Shown here: positions 1,954-49,666 of the stretch, one piece after another
Numbering within the stretch: position 1 is the first letter of the stretch
How the letters are laid out: each line of letters starts with the position of its first letter
Assembly (NCBI GenBank): GCA_018725565.1
Contig: QLUR01000006.1
Location: 7,902 to 71,901 of the forward strand
Length of the DNA stretch: 64,000 nucleotides
From: Bacillota bacterium
GTDB lineage: Bacteria; Bacillota; Dethiobacteria; Dethiobacterales; Dethiobacteraceae
Reading direction: 5' to 3'
Notes under the pieces: model-generated
What the model saw: only the letters and a program-made list of their open reading frames with translations
Database searches by the model: none
What the model was told of the DNA's origin: nothing
Program-made: the position numbers and the translations under genes

Positions 1954-3051
1954 TCACACTACTTCATGGATAACGGCAGCGCATGCTGCTGCCGCTTCCG
2001 GGAAGCCCAGTCCCTTGCCGGCAACTGACATCCTGCGCAGTTTGTCACGGTCTCGCAGAAGTCCGGCAAGGCTCGCGGTCAGGCCGGCACTGTTCAGTTC
2101 CGCCTCGCGGATCAGCAGCGCCGCGCCATGCCCGGTCAGCACCAGCGCATTGTGTTCCTGGTGGTTGTTCGTCACGTTTGGCGAAGGAACAAGCACAGCC
2201 GGCACACCTAACGCTGTGATTTCCGCACACGTCGTAGCTCCCGCCCGGCTGACAATCAGGGCGGTCCGGGCTAACAGCTGCGGCAGCGCAGGGTGATACG
2301 GCAAAAGGTGCAGACGGTGCGGGAAACGGTTGCCTAAAGGCTCCAGCAGCTGTTTGATAGCGGCAAAATAGCGGCGGCCCGTGATGTAAACAACCTGCAC
2401 TTCACAGGCGGCAAGCAACGGTTCAAGGCATTGCGCAAATACCTCGTTTAAGCGGGCGGCGCCATGGGTGCCTCCGACCGCCAGCAGCACCGGCACTCCC
2501 GGCAGCAGCCCGGGGAGGGGAGTACCAGGTATTGCGGCGGCTTGCAGTGCTTCGCTGGCACGCGGGTTACCCGTCAGGATTGTGGAGGTGCGCGGCGGAA
2601 AGTGCCGCTCGCTGCCCGGGAAACTCAGGCAGACACGGCGGGCCATTCTTGAGAGGAGCACGTTGGTAAGGCCGGGGACGGCGTTTTGCTCGTGAATCAC
2701 AGCAGGCGTTCCGGCCAGAACAGCTGCCAGCACCACCGGCCCGGAGACATAGCCTCCCATTCCTACTACCACGTTGGGACGAAAACTCCTGACGATGCGC
2801 GCGGCCGACCATACTCCGGCTCCGGCCAGCAGCAAGGCTTTCCCTGCCTGCAGCGAGACGCGCCGTTCCAGACCGGCTGCCGGTATTTTTTCAAGCTCAA
2901 ACCCGGCAGCGGGGACAAGCTCTTTCTCCAGTCCGCGCTCCGTGCCGACAAAAAGCGTTTCCGCCCCTTCGGTCACGCAAAGGTGACGGGCCAGCGCCAA
3001 CGCCGGATAAATATGTCCGCCGGTACCCCCGGCCGCAAACAGCACCCGCAC
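1954..3051 (-). CDS. murG: undecaprenyl-PP-MurNAc-pentapeptide GlcNAc transferase
   Basis: ORF 365 aa, N-terminal MRVLFAAGGTGGHIYPALA signature, position between ftsW and murB. Confidence 0.9.
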   Translation of the reverse strand: MRVLFAAGGTGGHIYPALALARHLCVTEGAETLFVGTERGLEKELVPAAGFELEKIPAAGLERRVSLQAGKALLLAGAGVWSAARIVRSFRPNVVVGMGGYVSGPVVLAAVLAGTPAVIHEQNAVPGLTNVLLSRMARRVCLSFPGSERHFPPRTSTILTGNPRASEALQAAAIPGTPLPGLLPGVPVLLAVGGTHGAARLNEVFAQCLEPLLAACEVQVVYITGRRYFAAIKQLLEPLGNRFPHRLHLLPYHPALPQLLARTALIVSRAGATTCAEITALGVPAVLVPSPNVTNNHQEHNALVLTGHGAALLIREAELNSAGLTASLAGLLRDRDKLRRMSVAGKGLGFPEAAAACAAVIHEVV

Positions 3052-3082
3052 CTGTTCCCCTCCTTGTTGCAGTCCCTACAAA

Positions 3083-4192
3083 CTAGTCTGCCTTTATGTA
3101 CCTGGAAATATTGAGCACAACACCAATACCGCACATAGTGACAAAGAGTGAAGAGCCTCCGGCGCTGATAAGTGGCAGGTTAGTCCCGGTTACAGGAATC
3201 GAGCCTGTAACAACAGCAACATTGACCAGGGTCTGCAGGCCGATCATACTGATAAATCCTGCCGCGAGGAGCGAGCCGAACACATCCCGCGCCTGAAGCG
3301 CTACTTTGAATCCTCTCCACAGCAACAGCAAAAATAGGAAAAGAACAGCTGACGCACCGATAAAGCCCAGCTCTTCACCAATAATAGCGAAAATAAAATC
3401 GTTTTGCGGTTCAGGAATGTAAAATAATTTCTGCCGGCTGCGTCCAAGACCAGCGCCAAACAATCCGCCTGACCCAAGCGCGTAAAAGGACTGGATAACC
3501 TGGAAGCCGGTGTCGAGCGGGTCAGCCCACGGGTCACGGAAAGAAAGGAGCCGCTCCAGGCGGTAAGGAGCACTGATCATCAGGTACCCAAGCAACGGCA
3601 CACCGGCCAGCACCGCTACGGCCAGCTGTCGCAGGGGCATGCCTGCCACAAAGACAATTACGGAAGTAGTTCCGGCAATGGCTATGGCCGTTCCCAGGTT
3701 AGGCTGCCGCAGGATCAGCAGAAAAAAAACGCTTAATACGGCAAGGACCGGAAAAACTCCTTCCAGAAAATTCTGGATACGTACTTCCTTGCGGGACAGA
3801 TAGGCAGAAGCAAATAGGACCATTGCCACCTTGGTCAACTCTGCCGGTTGCATTGTCAGGCCGCCGATCCTGATCCAGCGCTGCGCCCCGCCGGCCTCAA
3901 AGCCCAGTCCCGGCACAAATACGGCCAGCAAAAGCAGCAGGTTAGCCAGCAGGAACAAGTTGGTCCAACGCCTTAGCTTCCAGTAATCGTACCGGCTGAA
4001 GAATAGCAGTCCCGCGAAGCCGATCACAGCCCAAAGCGCCTGCCGTCGCAGCTGAAAATAGATATCGCCCTGTCTTTGCCCTTCGATGATGGCACTGGCG
4101 CTGAACACCATTACCAGACCCACAAGCAGCAAGGTTACAGTGGTAAAGAGAATGACGAAGTCCGGTTCACGTTTTTTTAAATGTCCGGTCAC
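3083..4192 (-). CDS. ftsW: SEDS family peptidoglycan polymerase FtsW/SpoVE
   Basis: ORF 3083..4297, ~10 TM helices, FtsW/RodA/SpoVE motifs (GGAQRWI, NLGTA, LPLISAGGSS); start uncertain, GTG 4190-4192 preceded by GGTGGAG chosen; overlaps murD end. Confidence 0.85.
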   Translation of the reverse strand: MTGHLKKREPDFVILFTTVTLLLVGLVMVFSASAIIEGQRQGDIYFQLRRQALWAVIGFAGLLFFSRYDYWKLRRWTNLFLLANLLLLLAVFVPGLGFEAGGAQRWIRIGGLTMQPAELTKVAMVLFASAYLSRKEVRIQNFLEGVFPVLAVLSVFFLLILRQPNLGTAIAIAGTTSVIVFVAGMPLRQLAVAVLAGVPLLGYLMISAPYRLERLLSFRDPWADPLDTGFQVIQSFYALGSGGLFGAGLGRSRQKLFYIPEPQNDFIFAIIGEELGFIGASAVLFLFLLLLWRGFKVALQARDVFGSLLAAGFISMIGLQTLVNVAVVTGSIPVTGTNLPLISAGGSSLFVTMCGIGVVLNISRYIKAD

Positions 4193-5582: not shown

Positions 5583-6536
5583 TTACAGAACACCCAGCTG
5601 CAACAGCCCAATCACGGCAAACAAAAAGCCCAACGCCCAAAAACCGGTAACGACCTGCCACTCATTCAGCCCTGACAACTCAAAATGATGGTGCAACGGA
5701 CTCATACGGAAAATCCTCTTCCCGGTTGCCCTGAAGATCAGGACTTGGATAATGACGGAAACAGTTTCCAGGACAAACACCCCTCCGATAATAACCAGGG
5801 ACAATTCCGTTTTAGTCAAAACGGCAAGTGAAGCCAATGCCGCACCAAGTGAAAATGAACCGACGTCACCCATAAAGACTCTGGCCGGGTGCAGGTTAAA
5901 AATCAGAAAAGCAAAAGTTGCCCCGAGCAAAGCCGCGCTGAACTGCACCAGTTCAACGGTCCCCTGCGCCATGGCGATCAGCAGGTAAGAAAGCAGCGCC
6001 AGAATAGCAGTCCCGGCAGCAAGACCATCAATCCCGTCAGTTAGATTTACGGCATTAGTGAAACCGAGTACAAAAAAAAGCAAGAAAGGCAGGTAAAGCA
6101 AGCCGGCCTCCACCTGGATCGCGGTAAAAGGGACCGCCAGTTCCGTGCTTTCCCCCAGACCGCGCCAGACAAAGAAAAAAACTGACGCCAGTACCGCCTG
6201 CCCCAGCAACTTACTGCGGGCTTTCAGACCAAGCGAACGCTTGCGCACTACCTTTAAGAAGTCATCGGCAAATCCGATTAAACCGCTGCCGGCTGTAAGC
6301 ATTAAGGCTAGGTAAAGTTCCGTTGTCCTGGGCGCCAGGAGCAGTGTTACAGGCAATACTGCCAGGAGGAAGATTACTCCGCCCATGGTCGGAGTTCCTG
6401 CTTTCTGCCGGTGCCGCTGCGGCCCGTCCTCCCGTATCTGTTGTCCGAAGTGAAGGCGCCGGAGCAGGCCGATTAACAGCGGAGACAGGACCAGGCTGAT
6501 GAAAAAAGCGGCAAAGGCAGTTAACAGCACCGTCAT
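5583..6536 (-). CDS. mraY: phospho-N-acetylmuramoyl-pentapeptide transferase
   Basis: 317 aa polytopic membrane protein with GTPTMGG, DDFLKV, NLTDGIDGLA motifs. Confidence 0.92.
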   Translation of the reverse strand: MTVLLTAFAAFFISLVLSPLLIGLLRRLHFGQQIREDGPQRHRQKAGTPTMGGVIFLLAVLPVTLLLAPRTTELYLALMLTAGSGLIGFADDFLKVVRKRSLGLKARSKLLGQAVLASVFFFVWRGLGESTELAVPFTAIQVEAGLLYLPFLLFFVLGFTNAVNLTDGIDGLAAGTAILALLSYLLIAMAQGTVELVQFSAALLGATFAFLIFNLHPARVFMGDVGSFSLGAALASLAVLTKTELSLVIIGGVFVLETVSVIIQVLIFRATGKRIFRMSPLHHHFELSGLNEWQVVTGFWALGFLFAVIGLLQLGVL

Positions 6537-16952: not shown

Positions 16953-17185
16953 AAAATTATATCTCCTCTGTTAGCTTTTTACAACCTAAAAAAACAATAA
17001 AAAACCCCCCACTATGCCGTGGACCGTCAGTTTTGAACTGCTCTCCCCACAAGTGGGTGCCCTCCTGATTACTTTACAAGTCCTCCGCAGAGGCGTGTGC
17101 GCCGCAACCAGAGACAGGCTCCCCTAAACAAAGTGTTAGCTCAAAACTTTACGGGTAGTTCACAAACATAGCAGGGTGCTTTTGC
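16953..17185 (-). promoter_or_regulatory. ~230-nt structured 5' leader of csoR-like/mgtE operon (attenuator or riboswitch candidate)
   Basis: lies between a near-consensus promoter (17192-17220) and the csoR-like RBS; contains a long imperfect hairpin followed by U6AUUGU7 only ~36 nt before the start codon. Confidence 0.5.
16988..17075 (-). terminator. terminator-like hairpin + U-tract inside the csoR-like leader
   Basis: minus strand CACCCACUUGUGG...CCACGGCAUAGUGGGGGG followed by UUUUUUAUUGUUUUUUU (plus-strand A-run 16988-17004). Confidence 0.5.
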
Positions 17186-22035: not shown

Positions 22036-24306
22036 TTGTTTCTACCTCTTGCAAGTCCAAGGGAAGTAAAAAAACGGTTGTGGATTGCCTTAGTGGGCAG
22101 TCATCTGCCCCGTAAATGTGGGATTGCCACCTTTGCAGCCAGTTTAAGCCGAGCACTAGAAGGTATAATGGGTCGTGATTCCACCTGGTTTGTTGCTTTA
22201 AACAATAATGAACACTATGATTACCCCTCTAAGGTTATTTATCAGCTCGAGCAAGACCGTCTGGAAGATTATCAAAACGCTGCTGAGATTATCAATTCCT
22301 CTGCGATAGATATAGTGTCGCTGCAACACGAGTTTGGACTTTTCGGAGGGCCTGATGGCATCCACATTGTGGAGTTTTTAAACCATTTACAAAAACCGGT
22401 GGTAACAACCTTTCATACCGTCTTGGAAAAGCCATCCTCAAGCCAGAAAAAGGCGTTCATCGAAGTAGCCGCCTTTTCTCAGGCACTGGTAGTAATGAAT
22501 GAACGGGCCATTGCCATTATGACAGACATATACAATATTTCCCATTCCAAGATCCACCTAATCCAGCACGGCGTTCCCGACGCATTTTATATCGACCCCT
22601 CTTACTATAAGCATCAGCTACAGCTGGCGGGGCGTTTTGTTATCCTGACCTTCGGCTTCCTTAGCCCCAACAAGGGGATCGAGATTATGCTGAAAGCCAT
22701 GCCATCTGTGGTTAAAAAGCATCCCGCAGTGCTGTATATCGTCTTAGGTGTCACCCACCCCACGGTGAAGAAGCGCAACGGTGAAGAATACCGGGAAAGC
22801 CTGGAAAACCTTGTAAATAACTTTGATATCGCTGAAAATGTGCTTTTTGTCGACGAGTTTGTGGACGACGACACTTTGGGCTACTACCTAGGGGCGGCAG
22901 ACCTGGTGGTCTGCCCATATCACTCTGAGGGCCAGATTACAAGCGGTGTCCTCAGTAACTCACTGGGCAAAGGGAAAGCCATTATTTCCACTCCATACCT
23001 GCATGCCCAAGTGGCGCTGGCCGGAGGGAAGGGCCGGCTGGTCAACTTTAATGATCCGGTGGGGATGTCTGAAGCAGTTCTGCAGCTGATTGAAAATCCC
23101 GAGGAGAGGCGTTCCCTGGCAGGACAGGCCTATATCGCAGGCCTGCAAATGAGCTGGAGCCGTGTTTCCAGGCAGTACTTGGCTGTATTTGAAGAGCTGA
23201 CGTCTCAGGCCATAGAAACAAATAAGCTAGATCGCGTGCATACTCTGCCAGTCATCAACATGAATTACCTTAAGACACACACAGATGATACGAGCATCGT
23301 CCAACATACTCTCTTTGGCATTTCTGACTATGCCCATAATTATTCCGCAGATGATGCGGCCCGCGCCATCGTAGTCTGTGCCCATTATTTTAACATGTTC
23401 AGGGATGAGTCAGTGCTCTTCCTAGTAGATAAGTACATGGCGTTTCTTTCCCATGCCAGGCAGGAAAGCGGCTGGTTTTACAACTATCTAAATTACCAGA
23501 AAGGATTTCCTGCGCAGGAGCTGAGCCAGGATACGTTTGGACGGTGTCTGTGGGGACTAGGTGCCGCGGCCAGTCTAGTACAGAACCGGGATCAGGGCAT
23601 GCTGGCCAGGGAACTATTAGAGGATAGCATACCACAGCTGGACAAGCTAACATACACTCGCGCCCAGGCATACAGCGCTTGCGGTCTGGGCAATTATCTG
23701 TTTCACTTTCCCGAGGCTGAAACTGCAGAGGATGGGCTCCGCTTAATCGTCGATTCTCTCCTGCAGCGTTACCGGGAAAATGCCTCAGGTTCTTGGCGCT
23801 GGTTTGAAAACTTCTTAACTTATGATAACGCCCGCCTTCCTTATGCTCTCTTACTCGGCTATAGGCATTTTTCCGAGCCCGCCTACTTAGAAACGGCTCT
23901 GGAAGCTTTGGATTTCCTCATCGACATCCAGTACCAGGAAGGCTATTTTGACCTAATCGGCAACCATGGTTGGTACGTAAAAGGAGGGGAAAAGGCCTTA
24001 TTCTGCCAGCAACCCCTCGATGCCGGTGCCTTAACGGAAGTCTGCCTCTTGGCATCTGCCTTGAGCGGTCTGCAGAAGTACCTGGATTTGGCCTATGCCG
24101 CTTTTCAATGGTACCTTGGTCGCAACCGATTAGGCAAGGCGCTCTACCATCCCTCCACGGGTTCCTGTTCAGATGGCCTGGCGGAGAACGGTTCCAGTAA
24201 AAATAAGGGAGCCGAGTCCACCATCTCTTTTCTGCTTGGACTGCTTGCCCTTTACTCTTGGGAACTTTTTGAGCGATTCCATTATGAAAAAGAGACTGCT
24301 ATTTAG
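22036..24306 (+). CDS. GT4-family glycosyltransferase fused to a ~360-aa C-terminal domain of unrecognised family
   Basis: 756 aa; residues ~15-390 GT4/GT-B like (IALVGSHLPRKCGIATFA, ...SEGQITSGVL...); remainder helix-rich (WGLGAAASL, TYDNARLPYALLLGY, QPLDAGALTEV) reminiscent of an (alpha/alpha)6 toroid; TTG start 9 nt after AAGGAG. Confidence 0.7.
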   Translation: MFLPLASPREVKKRLWIALVGSHLPRKCGIATFAASLSRALEGIMGRDSTWFVALNNNEHYDYPSKVIYQLEQDRLEDYQNAAEIINSSAIDIVSLQHEFGLFGGPDGIHIVEFLNHLQKPVVTTFHTVLEKPSSSQKKAFIEVAAFSQALVVMNERAIAIMTDIYNISHSKIHLIQHGVPDAFYIDPSYYKHQLQLAGRFVILTFGFLSPNKGIEIMLKAMPSVVKKHPAVLYIVLGVTHPTVKKRNGEEYRESLENLVNNFDIAENVLFVDEFVDDDTLGYYLGAADLVVCPYHSEGQITSGVLSNSLGKGKAIISTPYLHAQVALAGGKGRLVNFNDPVGMSEAVLQLIENPEERRSLAGQAYIAGLQMSWSRVSRQYLAVFEELTSQAIETNKLDRVHTLPVINMNYLKTHTDDTSIVQHTLFGISDYAHNYSADDAARAIVVCAHYFNMFRDESVLFLVDKYMAFLSHARQESGWFYNYLNYQKGFPAQELSQDTFGRCLWGLGAAASLVQNRDQGMLARELLEDSIPQLDKLTYTRAQAYSACGLGNYLFHFPEAETAEDGLRLIVDSLLQRYRENASGSWRWFENFLTYDNARLPYALLLGYRHFSEPAYLETALEALDFLIDIQYQEGYFDLIGNHGWYVKGGEKALFCQQPLDAGALTEVCLLASALSGLQKYLDLAYAAFQWYLGRNRLGKALYHPSTGSCSDGLAENGSSKNKGAESTISFLLGLLALYSWELFERFHYEKETAI

Positions 24307-24372: not shown

Positions 24373-24735
24373 ATGCCTTTAGGAAAAGACCTTCTGGAGT
24401 CGGCAGAGCCCCCTTGGGGAAAATGGGAAGTGCTGTTAAGTGAACCCGGTTACAAGGTAAAGCGCATCACCGTAAACCCTGGGCATAAGCTTAGCTACCA
24501 GCGCCACGCCAACCGGCAGGAGCACTGGGTCGCCGTGGCGGGAAATGGGATTATCATTCTAAACGATAAAGAAATAGCACTCCAGCCCGGAGAAGCGGTG
24601 GATATACCAGCAGAAGCTGCTCACCGCGCCATCAATCCCGGCGATGAACCTTTTATCTTTATTGAGGTGCAGCGCGGCAGCTACTTAGGTGAGGATGATA
24701 TCGTCCGCTTAGAAGACAGCTACGGAAGAACGTAA
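24373..24735 (+). CDS. cupin-type mannose-6-phosphate isomerase (type II PMI domain alone)
   Basis: 120 aa, WGKWEVL...YKVKRITVNPGHKLSYQRHANRQEHWVAVAG...HRAINPG, i.e. the C-terminal PMI cupin of bifunctional ManC/CpsB as a separate gene. Confidence 0.8.
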   Translation: MPLGKDLLESAEPPWGKWEVLLSEPGYKVKRITVNPGHKLSYQRHANRQEHWVAVAGNGIIILNDKEIALQPGEAVDIPAEAAHRAINPGDEPFIFIEVQRGSYLGEDDIVRLEDSYGRT

Positions 24736-24760: not shown

Positions 24761-25840
24761 ATGAACATGACACGGTATGCCGTAATTATGGCTGGAGGGA
24801 GTGGAGAGCGCTTCTGGCCTTGGAGCCGAAGCCATCACCCCAAACAGTTCTTGAATCTGTTAGGGGAAAGTTCTCTTCTCCAACAAGCTTATGAGCGCAT
24901 TATAAATCTTTTTGACACACAGAACAGCTTGGTGGTGACAGGAAAAGAGCACGCTGCTCTAGCGAGGGAACAGCTCCCCAGCCTGCCGCAAGGAAACCTA
25001 ATTATAGAACCTCAAGGTAGAAATACCGCACCCTGTATCGGTCTGGCCGCCATGCATATTCGCAAGAGGGAACCGGATGCTACTATGCTGGTCTTCCCGG
25101 CAGACCACTTGGTGCAGGGGCAGGCAGAATTTCTCCGCTGCCTGGAAAAAGGACTACAACTAGCTTCTACTGCCGAGGTGCTAGTAACAATTGGCATCGT
25201 CCCAACCCGACCGGAGACGGGTTATGGCTATATTGAGCGGGAAAAAGACGCTCTTCCCGGCACCCCTTTAACGTTTAAAGTGCGACAGTTCGTGGAAAAG
25301 CCCACTACCAATATCGCCCTAGAATATTTGCGTGCGGGCAGATATTTTTGGAACAGCGGTATTTTTGCGTGGCAGACAGACTTGATTCTAAAGAAAATAG
25401 AACAGCAGCTGCCAGAGTTGTACCGAGGATTAACAGCAATTGCTGGGCAGATCGGTTCCGATGGAGAACAGGAAGCTGTAGAGAGTATTTTCCCTTCCCT
25501 CCCCAGCATTTCCATCGATTATGGAATAATGGAGAAATCTCAGGAGATTCTGGTTGTTCAGGGCGATTTCGGTTGGGACGACCTAGGAAGCTGGGCTGCC
25601 CTAGCGGCCTGTTTCCCCAAGGATCAGAACAAGAATGTGGTCAAAGGTGAATACGTGGGGATTGATACCACCGATTGCCTGATGTATGGTCAGGGTCTCC
25701 TCATTGCCACCTTAGGTGTGCAGGACTTAGTAATTGTGCAGGCGGGAAATGCTGTGTTGGTCTGCGCTAAGGAGCGTTCTCAGGATATTAAAAAGCTGGT
25801 ACAGTCACTCAAGGATCAGGGACTAGACGGATACCTGTAG
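24761..25840 (+). CDS. manC: mannose-1-phosphate guanylyltransferase
   Basis: 359 aa, AVIMAGGSGERFWPWSR nucleotidyltransferase loop, ...FPADH..., ...YFWNSGIF..., SIDYGIMEK. Confidence 0.85.
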   Translation: MNMTRYAVIMAGGSGERFWPWSRSHHPKQFLNLLGESSLLQQAYERIINLFDTQNSLVVTGKEHAALAREQLPSLPQGNLIIEPQGRNTAPCIGLAAMHIRKREPDATMLVFPADHLVQGQAEFLRCLEKGLQLASTAEVLVTIGIVPTRPETGYGYIEREKDALPGTPLTFKVRQFVEKPTTNIALEYLRAGRYFWNSGIFAWQTDLILKKIEQQLPELYRGLTAIAGQIGSDGEQEAVESIFPSLPSISIDYGIMEKSQEILVVQGDFGWDDLGSWAALAACFPKDQNKNVVKGEYVGIDTTDCLMYGQGLLIATLGVQDLVIVQAGNAVLVCAKERSQDIKKLVQSLKDQGLDGYL

Positions 25841-25865: not shown

Positions 25866-27611
25866 GTGGAATACCGAAAAAAATATCAACAATGGCTCGA
25901 ATTTTCCGGAATGGATGAGGAACTGGGCCGGGAACTGACCAAGATTTCCCTTGACGAAAACGAAATAGCCAACCGCTTTTCCAAAGAGATAGCCTTTGGC
26001 ACCGGAGGAATCCGGGGTCGGATGGGTGTCGGAACAGCATTGATCAATATTTATGTAGTCCGCAAGGTTACGCTAGGTCTGGCGCGCTATCTTCTTAACG
26101 CTTGTCCGAAAGAGGGAAAACAACCTTCCGTGGTTATTGCCTGCGATACTAGGCGCAACTCGGAGCTGTTTGTTCGAGCAACGGCGGAAGTTTTAACCAA
26201 CCATGGAATTAAAGCCTGGGTTTTCCCAGAGCCTACTCCGACACCTCTCTTATCCTTTGCGGTCAGGGAACTGCAAGCTTCAGCCGGAGTAGTGATTACA
26301 GCCAGTCATAACCCCCCTGCTGACAACGGCTACAAAGTGTACGGACCAGACGGCGGGCAGATCACTGATTACCTGGCACACGCCATCACAGAGCATATTC
26401 TTCAGGTGGAAGATGCACTAACAATACCGGGTGGTGATCTGGAAGAGGCAGAAAAAAACGGGCTGTTTGAGCGAGTCGGTGCCGAGATAGATAACCGCTA
26501 TTATAAATTATTACAGGGTATATCTCTCAGCTCAACCTGGTGGGGCAAAGGCCCGCTGCCGGTAAGGGTTGTCTACACCCCCCTTCACGGCACAGGGGGC
26601 AAAGCAATTCCACGGGCGCTGAAAAATACCGGCGTTACTGAGCTCTTCCTCGTGTCAAAACAGTTAGAGATGGATCCCAACTGTTCCACAGTTCAATATC
26701 CAAATCCCGAAGATTGGGAAGTGTATAACATGGCCATAACCTTGGGGGAAAAAGAACAGGCAGACCTGTTATTGGCTACCGACTTAGACGCTGATCGTCT
26801 AGGTGCCGCTGTTCGTAACACCTCAGGGCGCTATGTCCCTCTAACCGGCAATCAGATTGGCTGCTTGCTGCTGGACTATATCCTTTCTCAAAGAAAAAAG
26901 CAGGAGAAGCTTCCCACTAACGGCATAGTACTCCAGACTGTGGTGACCTCGGAAATGGGGAAGGCCATCGCCGCAGACTACGGAGTGGAGATAATAGAAA
27001 CACTGACGGGGTTTAAATATATTGGCGAACAAATTAAAGAACGTGTCGATACAGGCCAAAATGTTTTTCTCTTTGGCTTTGAAGAGAGCTATGGCTACCT
27101 CGCAGGTGACTTCGTCCGAGATAAAGACGGTATTCAAGCCAGCCAGCTGGTAGCCGAGATGACCGCTTATTATAAATACAGAAAGATGACTCTCTTAGAT
27201 GCTCTAGAGCAACTGTTCTTGGCTCACGGCTATTTTCAAGAAGAACTGGTTAACCTTAAACTGGCTGAAGGTGAGCTTTATCGGGTAGAGCAGGTCATGA
27301 ACCAATTGCGCGGTGCCCATTTATCAGAACTGAACGGGCTAAAAATCATCCGCGCAGAAGATTACCTCAAACAGATAAGCACTGACGTACAGGGAAACCA
27401 AACACCGATTGGGCTGCCTGCCAGCAACGCGCTGAAATATATTTTGGATGATCTTTCCTGGTTCTGCATTCGCCCGTCAGGCACCGAACCAAAGATAAAG
27501 ATTTATCTAGGGGTAAAGGGAGATAGCGCCGATGTAGCTGCAGCTAAGCTTTCTACGCTCAGGGAAAATGTGTTGGCTCTGGTGGCCGGCCTAGAAACAC
27601 GCTCCCCGTGA
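25866..27611 (+). CDS. alpha-D-phosphohexomutase (phosphomannomutase/phosphoglucomutase, PgcA-like)
   Basis: 581 aa, catalytic loop TASHNPPADNGYK, metal loop DLDADR, sugar loop GFEESYG, phosphate loop RPSGTEPK; GTG start after GGGAGGAG. Confidence 0.85.
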   Translation: MEYRKKYQQWLEFSGMDEELGRELTKISLDENEIANRFSKEIAFGTGGIRGRMGVGTALINIYVVRKVTLGLARYLLNACPKEGKQPSVVIACDTRRNSELFVRATAEVLTNHGIKAWVFPEPTPTPLLSFAVRELQASAGVVITASHNPPADNGYKVYGPDGGQITDYLAHAITEHILQVEDALTIPGGDLEEAEKNGLFERVGAEIDNRYYKLLQGISLSSTWWGKGPLPVRVVYTPLHGTGGKAIPRALKNTGVTELFLVSKQLEMDPNCSTVQYPNPEDWEVYNMAITLGEKEQADLLLATDLDADRLGAAVRNTSGRYVPLTGNQIGCLLLDYILSQRKKQEKLPTNGIVLQTVVTSEMGKAIAADYGVEIIETLTGFKYIGEQIKERVDTGQNVFLFGFEESYGYLAGDFVRDKDGIQASQLVAEMTAYYKYRKMTLLDALEQLFLAHGYFQEELVNLKLAEGELYRVEQVMNQLRGAHLSELNGLKIIRAEDYLKQISTDVQGNQTPIGLPASNALKYILDDLSWFCIRPSGTEPKIKIYLGVKGDSADVAAAKLSTLRENVLALVAGLETRSP

Positions 27612-27994
27612 TGATTTTTATAATTCACCCCTGATAATATGATTTCCGGTATCCTCATCATTAGCTTCAGCAGCCCTTGCCAGCATCTGCACAGTATAGG
27701 CAAACGCATTCTCCGCATCTTTGATTTGCGCTGATAAAGCCCAAGAAAAAGTATCTGCATCACCAGATTTTCTAAAACAGAAAGATCGTAACGGGTGATC
27801 TCCCTGCCATAATTAAGAGCCAGAAGGCAAAGAGTATTGTCGATGTGAAAAACCATATTTTCCAGCCAAGGGCATCCAGCGAATCCTTGAGTTTCAGCTG
27901 AAATTCAGAATAGTTAAATTCCCCCTCTAAAAGAATTTAAAACGTTTTCGGCTACTTGTAGGAAACTCTCCTTGATTTGACGAATTAATTCCAT
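27612..27994 (-). pseudogene. decayed minus-strand gene remnant between the two halves of the glyco island
   Basis: ATG 27992-27994 with GGAGGTG SD opens MELIRQIKESFLQVAENVLNSFRGGI then two in-frame stops; further readable pieces in other frames (e.g. ...FRKSGDADTFSWALSAQIKDAENAFAYTVQMLARAAEANDEDTGNHIIRGEL*); family not recognised. Confidence 0.35.
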
Positions 27995-28202
27995 GAGAAA
28001 CTTCACCTCCGAGTGGCTACTTTCGTAGTTACTCATCCTGGATGGCGGATGGTGAGGTCTCTCTTCTTTGTGATGCAGGGGCTTTCTTGCAAAACATCCT
28101 ACAGTAAGTTTACTCTAACCTGGCGTATATTTCTTTCTTTGTTGACACTATCTGCACAAGAGCTACGCTGGGAGGAAGAAATGAGCGAGAAGCTAAAAAT
28201 AA

Positions 28203-31200
28203 ATGTTTGAGGTGAAGACAGTGACAGAATTGGAAAGCTTGTATCATCAATCATTATCCCGCGCTTTGGAAAAAGCTGCCGGAATGGAAAAGGTGGATTT
28301 AGTGGTGGGCATCCCCTTTCTAAATGGAGGCGAGGACGCGCAAATTGTTTTGTCCATTCTAGAAGCAGGGCTTGACACCTTTTACCCCGACCTGAAAGCT
28401 TTAATAGTCTGCGCCGCCTGCCCTTCTCTTTCTAGTCTGGAGAACTACGAATCTGAGCGCATATTGCTAACTCGCCTAGACAAAGCCTTGTCGGGTAGAG
28501 GATGGGTGGTGCGCAGCTTAATGGACGTGGCGAACAGATTGACGGCAGACTTAGTGATTGTGGAACCCAGCCTTTTGGCTGCAAAGAGCAATGGTTCACC
28601 GGAAGGCCTGACATCGGACTGGATTAAACTTATGTATCAGCCCGTTCGCGACGGAAGTGCTCAATTTGTGCTGCCCCGCTTTAAATTATCCCATATTAGC
28701 AATAGCATCGGCGACCACCTAGTCTTCCCCCTGCTGGCATCTCTCTACAATCTGGAACTTAAAGGGTGCCTAGACGCCGGGATGACCATTTCTCGCCAAC
28801 TATTGCCCAATCTTCTTGAAGAAGTGCCTATTTGGTCTGGTGAGGTCTATGAATATGGCATAAACTACTGGCTCACAATGCGTGCGTTAGAGCTAACAGC
28901 TGATATCACCGAAGTGTTGCTGGGCACCAAGCCAAAAGCCGCTCTGCCAGTGGGGCTGAATTATATGTTTAGCCAGGCAGTCCATGCGGTTTTTCAGGCT
29001 ATCGGCAAAGGCCAGGATGTCTGGAAACATAATCCCCAGGCTGTGCGCTCAGTGCTAACAATTGGTCCGAGGCATGATCTGTTTCTCCAGGAGGTGACGC
29101 TTGAGCCACGGCCGCACCTAAATCAGCTCCGCAGGGGCTTTAGCCGCTATTACGAGGCGGTCTGGTCGCGTATTTTTTCCGAAGAGCTATGCATCCAGCT
29201 CAAAGAGGCGGCTACAGCTAGCGAAGAAGACTTCTCTTTCCCATCTGCCCTTTGGGCTCAGTTGGTCTACGAATCGCTCATCGCCTATCACTTTATTTCT
29301 ATGCTGGCAAAAGAAGATCTGGCCAATAGCCTGACACCTCTTTTTGAAGGAAGGTTGGCTGGCTTTTTGAAGGAGATTTCCACCCATACCCACTGCGACC
29401 TAAGCGAAGCTAGCTCTGAGCTTACAGTCTGCCCGTTTAACGCTAGGAACATCCTGGAAACGCAAAACGATGCCTTTATTAGCCGCAAACAAGTCTTTCT
29501 GGAAAAATGGCTCCACCACAAAGTGGCGCTGCTGCCCTTTTTACCGGAAATCGCCTATTGGGAATACATTCCCGGCATCCCCATTATCCTGCCCCACCTA
29601 GTCCGGTCAGCATCGGGGAAAAGTGCTCACGTGGCAGGAATTTACGAACGGCTTTTACAGGAATATAAGGAAGAATTCGAAACTTTTGCCCAACAGACAC
29701 TAAATCTCTCCGCTGAGGATGGCTCTGAAAAGCTGGGAACTGCCATACGTAGCTTGGTGGAACAAGTAGAAAAAGATCTGGATCAAATCCTGCTTCCGGG
29801 GGATCTTCACACCTTAGAGGGAATGCAAAAGGTGGCAGATCGTATTTTTGCACTCTACCCTGCCCCTAAAAGCTTCTCTCTTAAAGCAGAGGTGGCCGCC
29901 CGGTTACTGCGGGAACACCCTCCCCGTAACCTTATCACTCTCTGGGGCTACCACAATACGGATGAACTCCTTAAACACCATAACCCACTAGATGTTCTGG
30001 CACTTGCTTCCTGGTCCGAAGTCTCTAAATATTCCACATGGAACAGTGAGTGGCTCAAAGAACAATTGAGGCCTGAACATTTGGAAATATCTCCCATCCG
30101 ACCCCTAGTGGTAAATTACAGTGACTTTCCAGCCCTATCAGGAATGGGGGAAGCAGCCTCGCTGAGCTACCTTACCAGCCGTGTTGTAATTAGCAACCGG
30201 AGGAAAGGGAGCGGCGGCAGTTTCCCCAAAACCCGCATTCTAACCATTATTTTAAAGAGCATCATCGAGTCTGAGCAGTTCGGCAGCATCTGGGAATCAT
30301 TTAAAAAGCAGTCTGGTAAAGATTTTGGCCCAAAGGTTGTTAACTCCATCGAAGGACACTGGGGAGTCAGTCTATTTTCTGGCCACAGTATTTTTGAAAA
30401 TATACAGCAAGAAATTCTGAAGAGCAAACTGTTGGAAATTTCCCGACAAGACTGGGGCAACACAAACGACACGGTGGAAGAAGCTCGTAATCACTTAGCC
30501 CAGATGGCAGCAGTCTACCACCTGGGGCTAACTTTGCCAGACGGCTATTTTATCACCTGCTCGCTCTGGAGTTGGGCCAGCTACAGCTTTAAAGGAGGGA
30601 AGGGCATTCCGACTCCCCTTTCTCTCATGGTCGAGCGGCGCTGGTTCAGCAGCGAATTGTTTTCCCGTTGTTATGAACACGTGATAAGCAGTCGCAATGA
30701 AGTTTTACCAAAAATAGCAGCACTAATGGGGCAGGGAAGGGAGAGCGAGAATCTAGCAGCCCTTTTCCTGGGAGCACCGCCTGACGGTATGGAAATCATC
30801 ATCGATCAGAAAATTGAAAAAGACCTCCCGCAGGCAGGCAAGCTGATTCGCTCTCCCTTCAACCCAATGTTAACCCTAATAGCAGAGCACAACTGGGAGT
30901 CGAAGTACGTTTTAAACTGCGGGGCCATCCGCGTCAAGGGGAATGTTTACATTTTTTATCGGGCTGTGGGTGAAGACGGTATCTCACGCATCGGGCTGGC
31001 CATTAGTAAAAACGGACTACAGGTAGATGAGCGTTTGCCTGAGCCGGTCTTTGGCCCTGCCCACGAGAGTGAAAAAATGGGGTGTGAAGATCCCCGGCTT
31101 ATCGCCATCGAAGGTCGCGTTTACATGCTTTATACTGCCTACGACGGCATTACTCCTCAGATTGCCCTGGCATCTATCGCCGAGGATGATCTTGTCCAAC

Positions 31201-31787
31201 AGCGCTGGCAACACTGGCAGCGCCACGGACTGGTCTTTCCGGGTTTCATCAATAAGAACGCAGTATTGTTCCCAGAACGGTTTAACGGCAAACTGGCCAT
31301 GTACCACCGCATCGCTCCCAGCATCTGGGTAACCTTTGCCAGCAACTTTGACACCCCCTGGCCCCGGGAAGGGCATAGGCTTATCATGGGCAGCCGCTCT
31401 GGGATGATGTGGGACGCTGTTAAAATCGGATCAGGTGCACCTCCCCTGAAAACCCGTTTTGGTTGGCTATTAATCTATCACGGAGTGGACTACGGCTTCC
31501 GCTATCGGCTTGGTGTTTTCCTCACTGCCCTAGACGATCCGGCGAAGCTCATCTACCGCTCCCCAAACCCCATCCTAGAGCCGGAAAAGTCTTATGAAAT
31601 TGGTGTTTCAGGCCAGAGTTGGGTGCCAAACGTGGTCTTTACCTGCGGAGCAGTCTCAGCTATTGACAAAGATATCTTAGATGAAGCTGATGAAATCCTT
31701 GTTTATTACGGCGGGGCGGACACCGTCATCGGTGTCGCTTCTGCCCGGGTAGCCGACCTTATCCCGGCGCGATTTCGTCAAGGATGA
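28203..31787 (+). CDS. 1194-aa fusion protein: ~870-aa N-terminal region of unknown family + C-terminal GH130 (beta-mannoside phosphorylase-type) domain
   Basis: C-terminal ~310 aa align by eye with the 322-aa GH130 two genes downstream (GCEDPRL / IEDPRI, NAVLFPERFNGK / NVVLFPEKFDGR, KIGSGAPP / KIGPGATP, WLLIYHGV / WLQIYHGV, NVVFTCG, YYGGADTV / YWGGADKV); start ambiguous (ATG 28203 or GTG 28221 after GAGGTG). Confidence 0.75.
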   Translation: MFEVKTVTELESLYHQSLSRALEKAAGMEKVDLVVGIPFLNGGEDAQIVLSILEAGLDTFYPDLKALIVCAACPSLSSLENYESERILLTRLDKALSGRGWVVRSLMDVANRLTADLVIVEPSLLAAKSNGSPEGLTSDWIKLMYQPVRDGSAQFVLPRFKLSHISNSIGDHLVFPLLASLYNLELKGCLDAGMTISRQLLPNLLEEVPIWSGEVYEYGINYWLTMRALELTADITEVLLGTKPKAALPVGLNYMFSQAVHAVFQAIGKGQDVWKHNPQAVRSVLTIGPRHDLFLQEVTLEPRPHLNQLRRGFSRYYEAVWSRIFSEELCIQLKEAATASEEDFSFPSALWAQLVYESLIAYHFISMLAKEDLANSLTPLFEGRLAGFLKEISTHTHCDLSEASSELTVCPFNARNILETQNDAFISRKQVFLEKWLHHKVALLPFLPEIAYWEYIPGIPIILPHLVRSASGKSAHVAGIYERLLQEYKEEFETFAQQTLNLSAEDGSEKLGTAIRSLVEQVEKDLDQILLPGDLHTLEGMQKVADRIFALYPAPKSFSLKAEVAARLLREHPPRNLITLWGYHNTDELLKHHNPLDVLALASWSEVSKYSTWNSEWLKEQLRPEHLEISPIRPLVVNYSDFPALSGMGEAASLSYLTSRVVISNRRKGSGGSFPKTRILTIILKSIIESEQFGSIWESFKKQSGKDFGPKVVNSIEGHWGVSLFSGHSIFENIQQEILKSKLLEISRQDWGNTNDTVEEARNHLAQMAAVYHLGLTLPDGYFITCSLWSWASYSFKGGKGIPTPLSLMVERRWFSSELFSRCYEHVISSRNEVLPKIAALMGQGRESENLAALFLGAPPDGMEIIIDQKIEKDLPQAGKLIRSPFNPMLTLIAEHNWESKYVLNCGAIRVKGNVYIFYRAVGEDGISRIGLAISKNGLQVDERLPEPVFGPAHESEKMGCEDPRLIAIEGRVYMLYTAYDGITPQIALASIAEDDLVQQRWQHWQRHGLVFPGFINKNAVLFPERFNGKLAMYHRIAPSIWVTFASNFDTPWPREGHRLIMGSRSGMMWDAVKIGSGAPPLKTRFGWLLIYHGVDYGFRYRLGVFLTALDDPAKLIYRSPNPILEPEKSYEIGVSGQSWVPNVVFTCGAVSAIDKDILDEADEILVYYGGADTVIGVASARVADLIPARFRQG

Positions 31788-31840
31788 CGTGATTCTAAAA
31801 CTCCTCCGGATTAACCTGTTGGGAAGGGGATTTTTTGAAA

Positions 31841-32857
31841 ATGAGAATTGCCCTGCTTTCTCCTATCGCCTGGAGGACTCCACCCCGCAACTATGGACCT
31901 TGGGAACGTGTAGTTTCACTAATTACAGAAGGCCTGCAAAAAAAGGGGATAGATGTTACCCTGTTTGCCACGGCTGACTCACTAACAGAGGGAAAGCTCC
32001 ATGCTGTAGTGCCACGCCCTTACGAAGAAGACAAATTGCTTGATCCAAAGGTATGGGAGTGTCTTCATATCTCCGAGATGTTTGAAAGAGCTAAAGGTTT
32101 TGATCTAATCCATAACCATTTCGACTTTTTGCCACTCACCTACTCCAGGTTGACCAGAACGCCCGTCCTCACTACTATCCACGGCTTTTCTAGTCCGAAG
32201 ATACTGCCTGTATACAAAAAATATAACGACACAACTTTTTATGTGTCCATCAGTAACGCTGATCGCTCACCGGAACTGGATTATATCGCTACCGTTTATC
32301 ATGGTATCGATATTGAAAACTTCGCATTTCAGGAAACACCTGAAGATTACCTGCTCTTTTTAGGGCGCATCCATCACGACAAAGGTGTCAGTGAAGCGAT
32401 TCAGATTGCCCGTAAAGTCGGCATGAAACTGATCCTTGCCGGGATTATTCAGGATGAAGCTTATTTTAAAGAACGAGTTGAACCTTTCCTTGATGGTTCC
32501 CAAATCAACTATGTAGGTACTGTAACTCCTGAGTTGAGAAATGAGTTGCTTGGGAAAGCCTTTGCTTTTATCCATTCAATCAATTTCAATGAGCCTTTTG
32601 GCTTATCTGTGGTGGAAGCTGGCGCCTGTGGAACACCAGTTGTGGCTTTTAACAAGGGCTCTATGCCGGAGATAATTGTGGATGGCGAAAACGGGTTTCT
32701 CGTTGATGATGTTTCTTCCGCAGTGGAGGCGATAGGTCAGCTAAAAACCATATCACGTTATAAGTGCCGGGCAATAGTGGCAGAAAAGTTTTCACAAGAG
32801 CAAATGGTGGAAAATTATCTGGCAGTGTACCGGCAGATAATAGAAAAAAACAATTAA
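31841..32857 (+). CDS. GT4-family glycosyltransferase (small, ~338 aa)
   Basis: ORF 31835..32857; MRIALLSPIAWRTPPRNYGPWERV N-terminus, C-terminal EPFGLSVVEAGACGTPVVAFNKGSMPEII (E-x7-E region) typical of GT4; ATG 31841 preferred. Confidence 0.8.
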   Translation: MRIALLSPIAWRTPPRNYGPWERVVSLITEGLQKKGIDVTLFATADSLTEGKLHAVVPRPYEEDKLLDPKVWECLHISEMFERAKGFDLIHNHFDFLPLTYSRLTRTPVLTTIHGFSSPKILPVYKKYNDTTFYVSISNADRSPELDYIATVYHGIDIENFAFQETPEDYLLFLGRIHHDKGVSEAIQIARKVGMKLILAGIIQDEAYFKERVEPFLDGSQINYVGTVTPELRNELLGKAFAFIHSINFNEPFGLSVVEAGACGTPVVAFNKGSMPEIIVDGENGFLVDDVSSAVEAIGQLKTISRYKCRAIVAEKFSQEQMVENYLAVYRQIIEKNN

Positions 32858-32896
32858 CGGTGGCGCTAATTGGTAACCCCGGAGGAGGATCTAATT

Positions 32897-33838
32897 GTGC
32901 TGAAACGGGAATCCGTAGTAAAAAGATATGAAAAAAATCCTATCCTTACCAAGAATGATGTGCCTTATCCGGTAGTTACAGTTCATAACGCCGGAGTAGT
33001 CAAAGCAGACGGCCGCTATTGGATGATTTTTCGGTCACATCTTTATAACGGACGCTCCATTTTGGGCTTGGCAGAGAGTTCCGACGGCTACCTGTTCACT
33101 GTCAGATCAGAGCCATTTATGACACCTGCACAAGAAGGCATTTTTGCCGAATATGAGGAATATGGAATAGAAGATCCACGAATCTGCAAAATCGACCAGG
33201 ATTTTGTCATTACTTACAGTGCCTATTCAAGGCACGGTGTAAGGGTCGCATTGGCTAAGACCCGGGATTTTAAGGCCGTGGAAAGAATAGCGCTGATTAC
33301 TCAGGCAGACCAGCGCAACGTTGTTCTTTTTCCGGAAAAGTTCGATGGCCGTTTTGTCCGCCTAGATCGCCCACACACAGAAATCAACCCTTGGTCAATT
33401 TGGATTTCATACTCGCCTGATTTAATTCACTGGGGCAACTCAAAGGTAATCGTCAAGCCGGAAGTCTACCATTGGGATGAAATGAAAATCGGCCCCGGAG
33501 CTACCCCCTTTAAGACCGACAAAGGCTGGCTGCAGATCTATCATGGCGTCTTTCGCACAATGGACGGCGCAGTGTACAGACTCGGCGCAATTCTGCATGA
33601 TCTGAATGATCCTTCCCTGGTTCTCGGGGTGGCTGACGAATGGATTCTTGAGCCTGAAGACCCTTGGGAGGTAACCGGGTATGTGCATAATGTGGTTTTT
33701 ACCTGTGGCGCGACTCCTGAAGAAGATGGAACGGTAAAAATCTATTGGGGAGGGGCGGACAAGGTAATGTGCGTGGGAACAGCAAACGTTAGCGACTTGG
33801 TTGCTTTGTGCTTGGAAAAACCAAGAAATCCCGTTTGA
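32897..33838 (+). CDS. GH130 family glycoside phosphorylase/hydrolase (PH1107-related 'glycosidase')
   Basis: ORF 32870..33838; KNPILT..., GIEDPRI, FPEKFDGRFVRLDRP, KIGPGATP, WLQIYHGV, YRLGAILHDLNDP, NVVFTCG; GTG 32897 sits 8 nt after GGAGGAGG. Confidence 0.8.
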   Translation: MLKRESVVKRYEKNPILTKNDVPYPVVTVHNAGVVKADGRYWMIFRSHLYNGRSILGLAESSDGYLFTVRSEPFMTPAQEGIFAEYEEYGIEDPRICKIDQDFVITYSAYSRHGVRVALAKTRDFKAVERIALITQADQRNVVLFPEKFDGRFVRLDRPHTEINPWSIWISYSPDLIHWGNSKVIVKPEVYHWDEMKIGPGATPFKTDKGWLQIYHGVFRTMDGAVYRLGAILHDLNDPSLVLGVADEWILEPEDPWEVTGYVHNVVFTCGATPEEDGTVKIYWGGADKVMCVGTANVSDLVALCLEKPRNPV

Positions 33839-48526: not shown

Positions 48527-48540
48527 CATATAATAAAACA

Positions 48541-48684
48541 CACGTTGCTAGGGGCGCCGGCAGGCTGAGAAAGGGATTTCCCTTTACCCTTGGAACCTGA
48601 TGTGGGTAATTCCACCGTAGGGAAGCAACCGACCTGCATCTTTCCATGATGCAATAAAGCTGACCTGCAGGTCGGCTTTTGAAT
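48541..48684 (+). promoter_or_regulatory. TPP (THI-box) riboswitch with terminator expression platform
   Basis: P1 GTTGCT(48544-49)/AGCAAC(48624-29); core GGGGCGCCGGCAGGCTGAGAAAGGG...ACCCTTGGAACCTGATGTGGGTAATTCCACCGTAGGGAAGC; terminator AAAGCTGACC-TGCA-GGTCGGCTTTT (48656-48680); TATAAT at 48529-48534 upstream; thiS follows. Confidence 0.9.
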
Positions 48685-48901: not shown

Positions 48902-49666
48902 ATGGATAACCTTGTTATCGGCGGACGGCAGATAGTCAACCGGCTTTTCCTCGGTACAGGGAAGTTTTCTTCCTATGATTTAATCCCCGACGTTATCGGC
49001 AGCTCAGGCGCACAGGTCGTTACCGTGGCGCTGCGCCGGGTAGACCCGGGCACAGCATCAGAAAACATGCTGGCGTATGTACCTGATAACTGCATCGTCA
49101 TGCCCAACACTTCCGGGGCGCGCACCGCTGATGAGGCTATACAGATTGCCCGGCTGGCACGGGCCATGGGCTGCGGGAACTGGATAAAGATTGAAGTAAT
49201 TAGCGACAATAAATATCTCCTGCCTGACAACGAAGAGACAATTTGTGCCACACGGACGCTGGCCGCTGAGGGCTTTGTCGTTCTCCCTTACATGAATCCT
49301 GACTTGACCGCAGCCAGGAAAATGCTGGATTGCGGTGCCGCCGCCGTCATGCCGTTAGGTTCCCCCATAGGATCAAACCGCGGCCTGAAGACCAGGGAGC
49401 TGGTGCAGATTATGATTGACGAACTTGCCGCGCCGGTCATCGTCGATGCCGGTCTTGGCAAACCTTCTGATGCAGCCGAGGCAATGGAGATGGGAGCGGC
49501 GGCTGTGCTGGTCAATACCGCTATTGCCACGGCAGAAGACCCGGTCCTGATGGCCGGAGCTTTTTCGCTGGCTGTTAAAGCTGGCCGAATGGCTTATCTC
49601 GCCGGGCTTGGGGGGGAGTCCGCCTTGGCCAGGGCCTCCTCGCCGCTTACCGGGTTTCTGTTTTAG
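48902..49666 (+). CDS. thiG: thiazole synthase
   Basis: 254 aa, [26 protein letters not shown] motifs. Confidence 0.92.

Follow-up and report, generated by a model that had tools for sequence, protein, structure and literature searches.

What does a bacterium do with a GH130 enzyme that carries some 870 extra residues ahead of its GH130 domain? The question is raised by a 64,000-nucleotide stretch of DNA from a Bacillota bacterium of the Dethiobacteraceae (GenBank assembly GCA_018725565.1, contig QLUR01000006.1), here called the window, in which 28203..31787 (+) is an uninterrupted open reading frame of 1194 codons from ATG 28203. An earlier note, made from the letters of the window, had remarked that GH130 proteins are typically single-domain, and a published survey agrees: more than 99% of GH130 enzymes are single-module (PMC7660257), and against this the fusion is unusually large.

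The encoded protein is best explained, from its sequence, as a soluble cytoplasmic three-module enzyme. A Kyte-Doolittle scan of the whole protein found no transmembrane segment, as the earlier note had said of the first ~870 residues, the highest 19-residue mean being only 1.14. We hold the domain-level description (three modules and their kinds) with high confidence; the protein is an uncharacterized form of a known kind of enzyme that contains one new domain family. As an explanation of the whole we favor, tentatively and at a little short of an even chance, an energy-conserving internal cycle of a beta-1,2-mannoside reserve or osmolyte. The parts of the gene are as follows, with residues counted from ATG 28203 (1194 aa):

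28221..31787 (+): fusion coding sequence from its probable true start, a GTG (1188 aa), judged from the starts and lengths of homologues
28224..29537 (+): module A, aa ~8-445, a GT-A domain (aa ~30-290) and a helical domain (aa ~303-442), from AlphaFold2, Foldseek and profiles
29523..29582 (+): linker between modules A and B, aa ~441-460
29568..30806 (+): module B, aa ~456-868, mixed alpha/beta and mostly helical, of no known family
30843..31772 (+): GH130 domain, aa ~881-1190, with the GH130_6 beta-1,2-mannoside phosphorylases Teth514_1788 and Teth514_1789 as its nearest relatives

The fusion has a family of its own. When aa 1-880 alone were used as the query, 57 proteins were found, nearly all of 1180-1240 aa with a C-terminal GH130 domain and 48-92% identical. 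The same protein is encoded at 28 GTDB genome loci in several lineages; the best match among GTDB representatives is in a Bacillota metagenome-assembled genome (MAG; 86% identity), and the 90% protein cluster of the fusion includes a Dethiobacter sp. MAG. The MAGs that carry the gene are labeled Dethiobacter, Halanaerobiales, Sumerlaeota, Peptococcaceae, Syntrophomonadaceae and Desulfovibrionaceae, to which cultured Anoxynatronum genomes are added (A. buryatiense and A. sibiricum; L010 and L011). Taxon and sample names suggest host settings that are alkaline, saline or subsurface. The junctions between the modules are conserved in an alignment of 44 full-length homologues, which is also the set used for the counts of residue conservation in the fusion clade.

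The C-terminal module is a GH130 domain. Pfam PF04041 (GH130) matched aa 903-1186 (E 8e-51, 173 bits against a cut-off of 26), and the best NCBIfam model, beta-1,2-mannobiose phosphorylase NF052550, matched aa 881-1185 with 242 bits, under the equivalog cut-off of 450; by this score the domain is a relative of that enzyme and not an equivalog. A PDB sequence search with the whole protein found 1,2-beta-oligomannan phosphorylase 9fj8 (E 1e-55) and beta-1,2-mannobiose phosphorylase 7fip, and the domain aligned alone matched both end to end (E 8e-57 and E 1e-53). By the NCBIfam and PDB matches the domain reaches from aa ~881 to ~1186. The motif E962-D963-P964-R965, whose aspartate D963 we take to be the GH130 catalytic residue, is invariant in the 44 homologues and aligns with LEDPR / VEDPR / IEDCR of 9fj8, 7fip and 9eqq. 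The pairs E962-D963 and N1017-K1018 do not vary within the family. The residues R920, E962 and K1018, also invariant in all 44, correspond in the alignment to Uhgb_MS R47, E136 and K184, the reported determinants of beta-1,2 specificity at the +1 subsite (PMC12814180).

Because both the EDPR catalytic motif and the three beta-1,2 specificity residues are present, the domain most likely catalyzes reversible mannose transfer between alpha-mannose-1-phosphate (Man-1-P) and a beta-1,2-mannoside chain. All tested beta-1,2-specific GH130 phosphorylases combine phosphorylase activity with weak transferase activity on GDP-mannose (PMC12814180), and by analogy the domain may transfer weakly from GDP-mannose too. 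Family members appear in databases as hypothetical, 'glycosidase', 'GH43/DUF377' or '1,4-beta-mannosyl-GlcNAc phosphorylase'; the last name is probably wrong for the fusion family because the beta-1,2 determinants are present.

The nearest characterized enzymes, Teth514_1788 and Teth514_1789 of Thermoanaerobacter sp., align end to end with the GH130 domain and have in common with it the motifs EDPR, NKDA-LFPE, HR, IYHG, YRLG, PNVVF-CG and YYGGADT. Genes for ManC and a GT4 enzyme lie nearby in both organisms. In contrast to these single-domain proteins of ~300 aa, the fusion adds ~870 aa in two modules at the N terminus, and the ABC transporter and GH5 enzyme of the Thermoanaerobacter cluster are not part of the conserved cluster of the fusion.

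What, then, are the first 870 residues? The earlier note had recognized no family in them, and sequence searches with aa 1-880 were indeed empty: there was no Pfam match even at E <= 10, no NCBIfam family and no PDB sequence match. An AlphaFold2 model of aa 1-880, built from the 44 homologues, had a mean pLDDT of 82.9, mostly 80-95 in module A and below 50 at aa 441-455 and 457-460. In the model the region is two bodies separated by a disordered linker. The view that the whole region could not be assigned therefore failed for the first ~440 aa and held for the second ~410 aa: when the model was searched with Foldseek, a check that the earlier note had proposed, module A matched a known enzyme fold and module B matched nothing.

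The top Foldseek hit in the PDB was mannosylglycerate synthase (MGS) of Rhodothermus marinus (GT78; 2bo7/2y4j), with E 1.6e-9 to 4e-8 and, for module A, a TM(target) of 0.68-0.74 over ~430 columns at 13-15% identity; hyaluronan synthase, GtrB and mannosyl-3-phosphoglycerate synthase followed. This agrees with the remark in the earlier note that the protein begins like a GT-A enzyme and has no obvious DxD, since the DxD place is occupied by E121-P122-S123. A HMMER search with a profile of aa 1-875 against 1.84 billion representative proteins found 1141 relatives. Hundreds of standalone proteins, ~390-440 aa long, correspond to profile positions ~5-400, and two of them pass Pfam MGS_GT (PF21969). 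A mixed profile (A5) of the window's module A and 53 standalone relatives, in which the latter dominate, found GpgS (GT81) at 3.6e-14 and MGS at 1.8e-12 in the PDB. The profile of the fusion family itself (A3) found no glycosyltransferase there, only chance matches to NRC2 and ferritin.

Among the relatives of module A, P0106 and P0111 are joined to HAD phosphatases and P0096 to a glycerate-kinase-type DUF4147/MOFRL protein; a fusion to a phosphomannomutase fragment (P0095) was also seen among these standalone-type relatives. The profile matches to GpgS and MGS, together with the HAD and DUF4147/MOFRL fusions, point to a glycosyl-(phospho)glycerate synthase ancestry, and the ancestral role of this GT-A family would be the synthesis of glycerate-linked compatible solutes.

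The metal ligands of GpgS and MGS are the second aspartate of the DxD motif and the histidine of a K-x-H motif. The corresponding sites of module A, on the plus strand, are as follows:

28410..28427 (+): C70-A-A-C-P-S75 at the position of the SDGGS nucleotide-binding motif, by alignment to active relatives
28563..28571 (+): E121-P122-S123 at the DxD position, aligned with D-A-D of standalone relatives and D-S-D of GpgS
28929..28937 (+): K243-P244-K245 at the K-x-H position, where the metal-binding His is replaced, by alignments with GpgS and standalone relatives

The triplet E121-P122-S123 lies at the end of a predicted strand (116-119). In all 44 fusion homologues the first residue is E/D, followed by P (37 of 44) and then by N/A/S/T, never by D at the third place. 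At position 245 the six commonest residues listed are K/R/E/A/N/Q, with His not among these, and the SDGGS position has the same degenerate pattern as C70-A-A-C-P-S75 throughout. Since metal and nucleotide ligands are replaced across the 44 homologues, a second catalytic activity in the GT-A part, one of three roles that the earlier note had offered (with a scaffold and an acceptor-binding module), is doubtful. Module A in the window's clade thus appears not to be a canonical transferase and probably no longer transfers sugar; it may instead be a ligand- or acceptor-binding module, or serve oligomerization.

Module A has the GT-A plus helical two-domain fold of MGS (GT78) and GpgS (GT81), but it differs from them in its 13-15% identity, in the replaced second DxD Asp, His and nucleotide motif, in having no direct Pfam or PDB match, and in being fused. 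We do not file it as a member of GT78 or GT81, because the three defining sequence features fail. The general idea of a GT-A/GH130 fusion is already catalogued in CAZy, though uncharacterized: among 1592 GH130 sequences, 6 are multimodular, GH130-GT81 and GH130-GH130 combined (Li et al. 2020, PMC7660257). The 'GH130-GT81' entries, compared here by description only, likewise join a GpgS-type GT-A module and GH130 in one polypeptide; unlike the present family they are reported as existing, with no function, middle domain or context given (PMC7660257). We found no paper that describes the function, middle domain or operon of the fusion family.

The replaced ligands bear directly on an alternative to the internal cycle, namely that the protein is a bifunctional synthase-phosphorylase in which module A is an active, non-canonical GT-A enzyme with E/D121 and basic residues in place of the DxD motif, His and metal. 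Module A is under clear constraint: E/D121 is kept in 44/44 homologues and R/K99 in 42/44, and R104 and D139-W140 are conserved. Many members of the wider A-B(-GH130) superfamily (P0058, P0060, P0065, P0098) still carry E-A-D and K-x-H, so that the ligand loss is a derived state of the window's clade and the ancestral fusion probably joined an active transferase to GH130. Within that clade, however, the second Asp, the His and DGGS are replaced in every member, the nucleotide loop P-x-x-N-E does not keep its N-E constant, and no Pfam glycosyltransferase model detects module A even at E <= 10, while two GT4 transferases of the operon could supply the transferase steps. We consider this alternative unlikely.

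Its fuller version, in which the glycoside made by module A is then trimmed or extended by GH130, is unlikely to the same degree; it would make the protein the soluble equivalent of Cgs, the cyclic beta-1,2-glucan synthase with GT84, cyclase and GH94 parts. Cgs too combines GT-A-fold, middle and beta-1,2-glycan phosphorylase domains in one polypeptide, and its (alpha/alpha)6-like domain has a counterpart here in the partner protein GT4-long. Cgs is, however, a membrane protein of ~2800 aa that acts on glucose with GT84 and GH94 domains, whereas the fusion is predicted to be soluble, uses GH130 and has an apparently inactive GT-A module. Foldseek similarity to Cgs (8rf0) was marginal (E 0.03, probability 0.2), and the marks of a Cgs-like membrane GT84 + GH94 protein were absent, there being no transmembrane segment and the phosphorylase domain being GH130.

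Module B is the new element of the protein. Modeled alone with AlphaFold2 it reached a pLDDT of 85.3 and a pTM of 0.87, and Foldseek found no credible neighbor in the PDB (best E 0.25, TM <= 0.15) or in BFVD (best E 0.05); a Pfam search returned nothing at E <= 10. On this predicted fold and these searches, module B is a new conserved domain family of ~410 residues with no relative in Pfam, the PDB or BFVD. An internal duplication, with A equal to B, was rejected, as hhalign aligned module A and module B with a probability of 0.5%, as expected for unrelated domains. No other open reading frame of the 64-kb window contains module A or B.

Module B is better conserved than module A across loci (52-88% against 43-84% identity). 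Its most conserved block, aa 772-822, is nearly invariant (YHLGLTLPDG..SLWSWASYSFKGGKGIPTPLSLMVERRWF), and it has two conserved Gly-rich loops, GSGGxFPK and FKGGKG. The residues W697, S726, E732, Y772, D780, W791, G798, P803 and E811 are conserved across 24 distant members that are 23-46% identical. The invariant carboxylates and aromatics suggest that module B binds or acts on a sugar chain.

The earlier note had proposed a comparison of fused and split versions. Such a comparison, made here, gave these architectures:

A-B-GH130: the prevailing form (for example P0059 and P0060)
B-GH130: P0082 (a complete gene) and P0090
GH130-GH130-B: P0085, which adjoins a mannose-6-phosphate isomerase gene and another GH130 gene
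A-B, then a separate GH130 gene 20 nt downstream: P0074, a true split
A-B fused to a TreT-like GT4 enzyme: P0061 and P0077

Among the 150 matches listed, module B is never a complete protein without A or GH130, and this Rosetta-stone pattern of fused and split architectures argues for a functional tie between module B and GH130. P0058, at first taken for a protein of A-B only, was rejected as such because it is cut by a contig end.

The conservation of module B raises a further alternative that overlaps the other readings: module B could be a second catalytic center, a new carbohydrate-active domain with the mannoside as its substrate, such as a transglycosylase, hydrolase, epimerase or chain-releasing enzyme. 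The conservation of E732, D780, E811, Y772, W697, W791 and S726 across such distant relatives, the Gly-rich loops, the higher conservation relative to module A and the additional fusion of module B to TreT-like GT4 enzymes (P0061, P0077) would all fit a catalytic domain. Set against this, module B has no homology to any enzyme, and conservation alone cannot separate binding from catalysis; we regard a catalytic module B as rather improbable.

The internal mannoside cycle that we prefer takes its substance from the neighboring genes. The order on the plus strand of the window is GT4-long, cupin mannose-6-phosphate isomerase, ManC, phosphomannomutase, fusion, GT4-short and free GH130:

22036..24306 (+): GT4-long, 756 aa, a PimA-like GT4 domain (aa ~29-394; PimA 1e-11) and a ~360-aa (alpha/alpha)6-like domain
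24373..24735 (+): cupin mannose-6-phosphate isomerase, 120 aa, whose orthologue in the related locus L001 has PF01050/PF07883; conserved in the loci
24761..25840 (+): ManC, mannose-1-phosphate guanylyltransferase (TIGR01479, E 3e-102)
25866..27611 (+): enzyme of the phosphomannomutase/phosphoglucomutase family, from Pfam, NCBIfam and locus conservation
31835..32857 (+): GT4-short, 340 aa, a homologue of the glucosylsucrose synthase TeGSS (7fg9/8x3q, E 7e-80)
32870..33838 (+): free GH130 paralogue, 322 aa, confined to the closest relatives

In a comparison of 29 relatives' loci, GT4-long adjoins the fusion in 24, often transcribed divergently. The cupin isomerase, ManC and phosphomannomutase genes adjoin it in most of the loci with enough flanking sequence, to which their counts are limited; in the Anoxynatronum loci the fusion stands with GT4-long and ManC, and GT4-short is frequent, in part of the loci. 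GT4-long and these three genes flank the fusion in MAGs under the labels Dethiobacter, Halanaerobiales, Sumerlaeota, Peptococcaceae and Desulfovibrionaceae. The fusion is thus co-conserved with the complete gene set from fructose-6-phosphate to GDP-mannose and with GT4 enzymes. No transporter or secreted glycosidase was found in the conserved core of 28 loci, and this, with the missing transmembrane segment, favors an internal substrate. In close relatives the GDP-mannose genes are divergent, and the window therefore has a rearranged gene order.

TeGSS is an alpha-1,2-glucosyltransferase that elongates a soluble sugar (PMC9909042). Since GT4-short is its close homologue, the cluster is suggested to build soluble oligosaccharides. 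The C-terminal ~360 aa of GT4-long have no Pfam match of their own; their relatives are mostly standalone proteins of ~340-360 aa with weak matches to C5-epim_C, GH88, GH127, GH76 and PDB 7tem_A, and the literature on 7TEM/YPO2471 offered nothing useful. In the distant loci L036 and L037, a GT4 enzyme and a protein of 362-365 aa are encoded by separate adjacent genes beside the family member. In L037 a histidine-phosphatase-family gene (His_Phos_1, 3004-3630) lies directly upstream of the A-B-GH130 gene, a sign that certain forms of the pathway may pass through a phosphorylated intermediate.

The free GH130 gene, two genes downstream, was described in the earlier note as a paralogue of the C-terminal domain, and so it is: the C-terminal 314 aa and the 322-aa protein are 35% identical (E 1e-43). 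At the specificity positions the free enzyme has E (EDPR) and R (DQRNVVLFPE), and the fused domain has E and K. An E/R pair has been reported for the beta-1,3-specific enzyme U7 (PMC12814180), and the two paralogues may differ in linkage specificity.

In the pathway that we propose from this context, the operon enzymes would convert fructose-6-phosphate through mannose-6-phosphate and Man-1-P into GDP-mannose. From a nucleotide sugar the GT4 enzymes would build a primer glycoside. The GH130 domain would lengthen this glycoside, with Man-1-P as donor, or break it down with phosphate and so recover Man-1-P, while modules A and B would serve to bind, present or process the putative acceptor. The net effect would be an internal mannoside reserve or osmolyte cycle that keeps the energy of the glycosidic bond, comparable to the cycling of mannogen in Leishmania. 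There, an intracellular beta-1,2-mannan (mannogen) is made from GDP-mannose or Man-1-P and phosphorolysed by GH130-like GT108 MTPs (PMC12814180, PMC10913872). The logic proposed here is the same. The Leishmania MTPs are eukaryotic GT108 proteins of one domain, whereas the putative bacterial cycle would draw on the further modules of the fusion and on its GT4 partners.

Several points weigh against this internal cycle. E/D121 is kept in 44/44 homologues and position 245 is basic in 28/44, and at 43-84% identity across loci module A is conserved more than a pure scaffold obviously needs. The roles of module B are inferred from its conservation and co-occurrence, and the family as a whole is known from sequence and models, with databases using hypothetical names or names that fit the GH130 part. 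Finally, the Thermoanaerobacter cluster of GH130, ManC and GT4 genes includes an ABC transporter and was interpreted as a system for salvage of imported beta-1,2-mannan (PMC4264767).

This last point opens a catabolic alternative, in which imported beta-1,2-mannooligosaccharides are phosphorolysed and Man-1-P passes to GDP-mannose synthesis or glycolysis, with modules A and B as substrate-binding appendages. Two GH130 genes with ManC and GT4 are indeed combined in Thermoanaerobacter (PMC4264767), and phosphomannomutase and mannose-6-phosphate isomerase are able to run catabolically. The conserved core of the 28 loci, however, lacks any transporter, binding protein or secreted glycosidase, and the co-conservation of two to three glycosyltransferase genes with ManC points to synthesis. 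For hosts that appear to be subsurface, alkaline or saline anaerobes, external beta-1,2-mannan would also be no obvious substrate. We judge a salvage role to be improbable.

That the long reading frame arose by a false joining of two or three genes in assembly or annotation, the refutation that the earlier note had itself named for what it took to be a genuine large GH130 fusion, has a negligible probability and does not hold against independent assemblies: 56 homologues of ~1180-1240 aa have the identical module order, the protein is encoded at 28 independent genome loci, the frame is continuous and the junctions are conserved.

Where the gene begins is a smaller question, which the sequences around its 5' end help to settle. 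Two elements lie here:

28181..28210 (+): mini-ORF MSEKLKINV, 9 codons, behind GGGAGG 28170-28175; lineage-restricted and of doubtful significance
28209..28214 (+): Shine-Dalgarno sequence GAGGTG, 6 nt upstream of GTG 28221 and also found in the related loci L001 and L012

The N termini of homologues read M/V/L-(T/S)-E-L-E-x-x-Y-Q, for which the equivalent position in the window is GTG 28221. Several homologues, including P0001, P0002 and P0004, are exactly 1188 aa long, and the two closest loci (L001 'TLEVKTV', L012 'TFEVKTV') have no start codon where the window has ATG 28203. Because homologue starts match GTG 28221 and ATG 28203 is not conserved, GTG 28221 is the likelier true start, as the earlier note had suspected from the GAGGTG sequence before it.

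The same note had described the GGGAGG sequence and the mini-ORF, both of which are present, and had suggested that the fusion is translationally coupled to this leader peptide. L001 keeps the mini-ORF as MREKLRINS, and that of L012 is disrupted or extended by an insertion of ~110 nt that includes a hairpin-like repeat. No similar mini-ORF occurs in the 26 loci that are farther away, and conservation stops at relatives of at least 84% identity; coupling to a leader peptide is therefore not supported as a family feature. Within the insertion in L012 (~6150-6265), counted relative to the window and L001, lies the inverted repeat CTCCCACCT...AGGTGGGAG, after which comes TTTT; the insertion also brings a second copy of AAACT(T/C)TTGAGGTGAAGACAGTGA.

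Farther upstream, a block at 28130-28180 is kept in L001 and L012 (CTTTCTTTGTTGACACTATCTGCAC...GCTACGCT) and contains TTGACA (28142-28147) and TACGCT (28164-28169) with a spacing of 16 nt. This block may be a promoter. A promoter and terminator consensus scan of 27500-28300 called nothing, and it passed over this block on account of the weak -10 hexamer. An Rfam search gave no riboswitch or leader RNA ahead of the fusion gene. The stretch between the phosphomannomutase gene and the fusion gene (27612-28140) is unusually long for non-coding DNA (~0.5 kb) and has no Rfam match. Elsewhere in the window, Rfam placed a 6S RNA at 17002-17180 (-) (RF00013, 93.9 bits) and a TPP riboswitch at 48540-48640 (+) (RF00059, 78.1 bits), the latter upstream of open reading frames that start at 48902.

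The fusion represents a conserved three-module GH130 family, which keeps the same set of partner genes in MAGs assigned to several phyla, where more than 99% of GH130 enzymes are single-module (PMC7660257). It adds a domain family of ~410 residues with a confident predicted fold, and it offers a clear example of a glycosyltransferase domain whose catalytic ligands were lost after fusion. A bolder and distinctly unlikely extension is that these genes encode a previously unrecognized bacterial pathway of intracellular beta-1,2-mannoside, a 'bacterial mannogen' or a mannosylated compatible solute, with module B as a new carbohydrate-active chain-transferring or chain-releasing domain between a decayed, primer-holding module A and GH130. 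If this were true, cyclic beta-1,2-glucan synthase would have a soluble analogue in function. Earlier work found no source of beta-1,2-mannan (PMC4264767) and left the in vivo relevance of the GDP-mannose transferase activity undecided (PMC12814180). The present family suggests that some poorly studied anaerobes run an internal mannoside cycle, and its operon is a testable candidate system for the physiological substrate of bacterial beta-1,2-mannoside phosphorylases.

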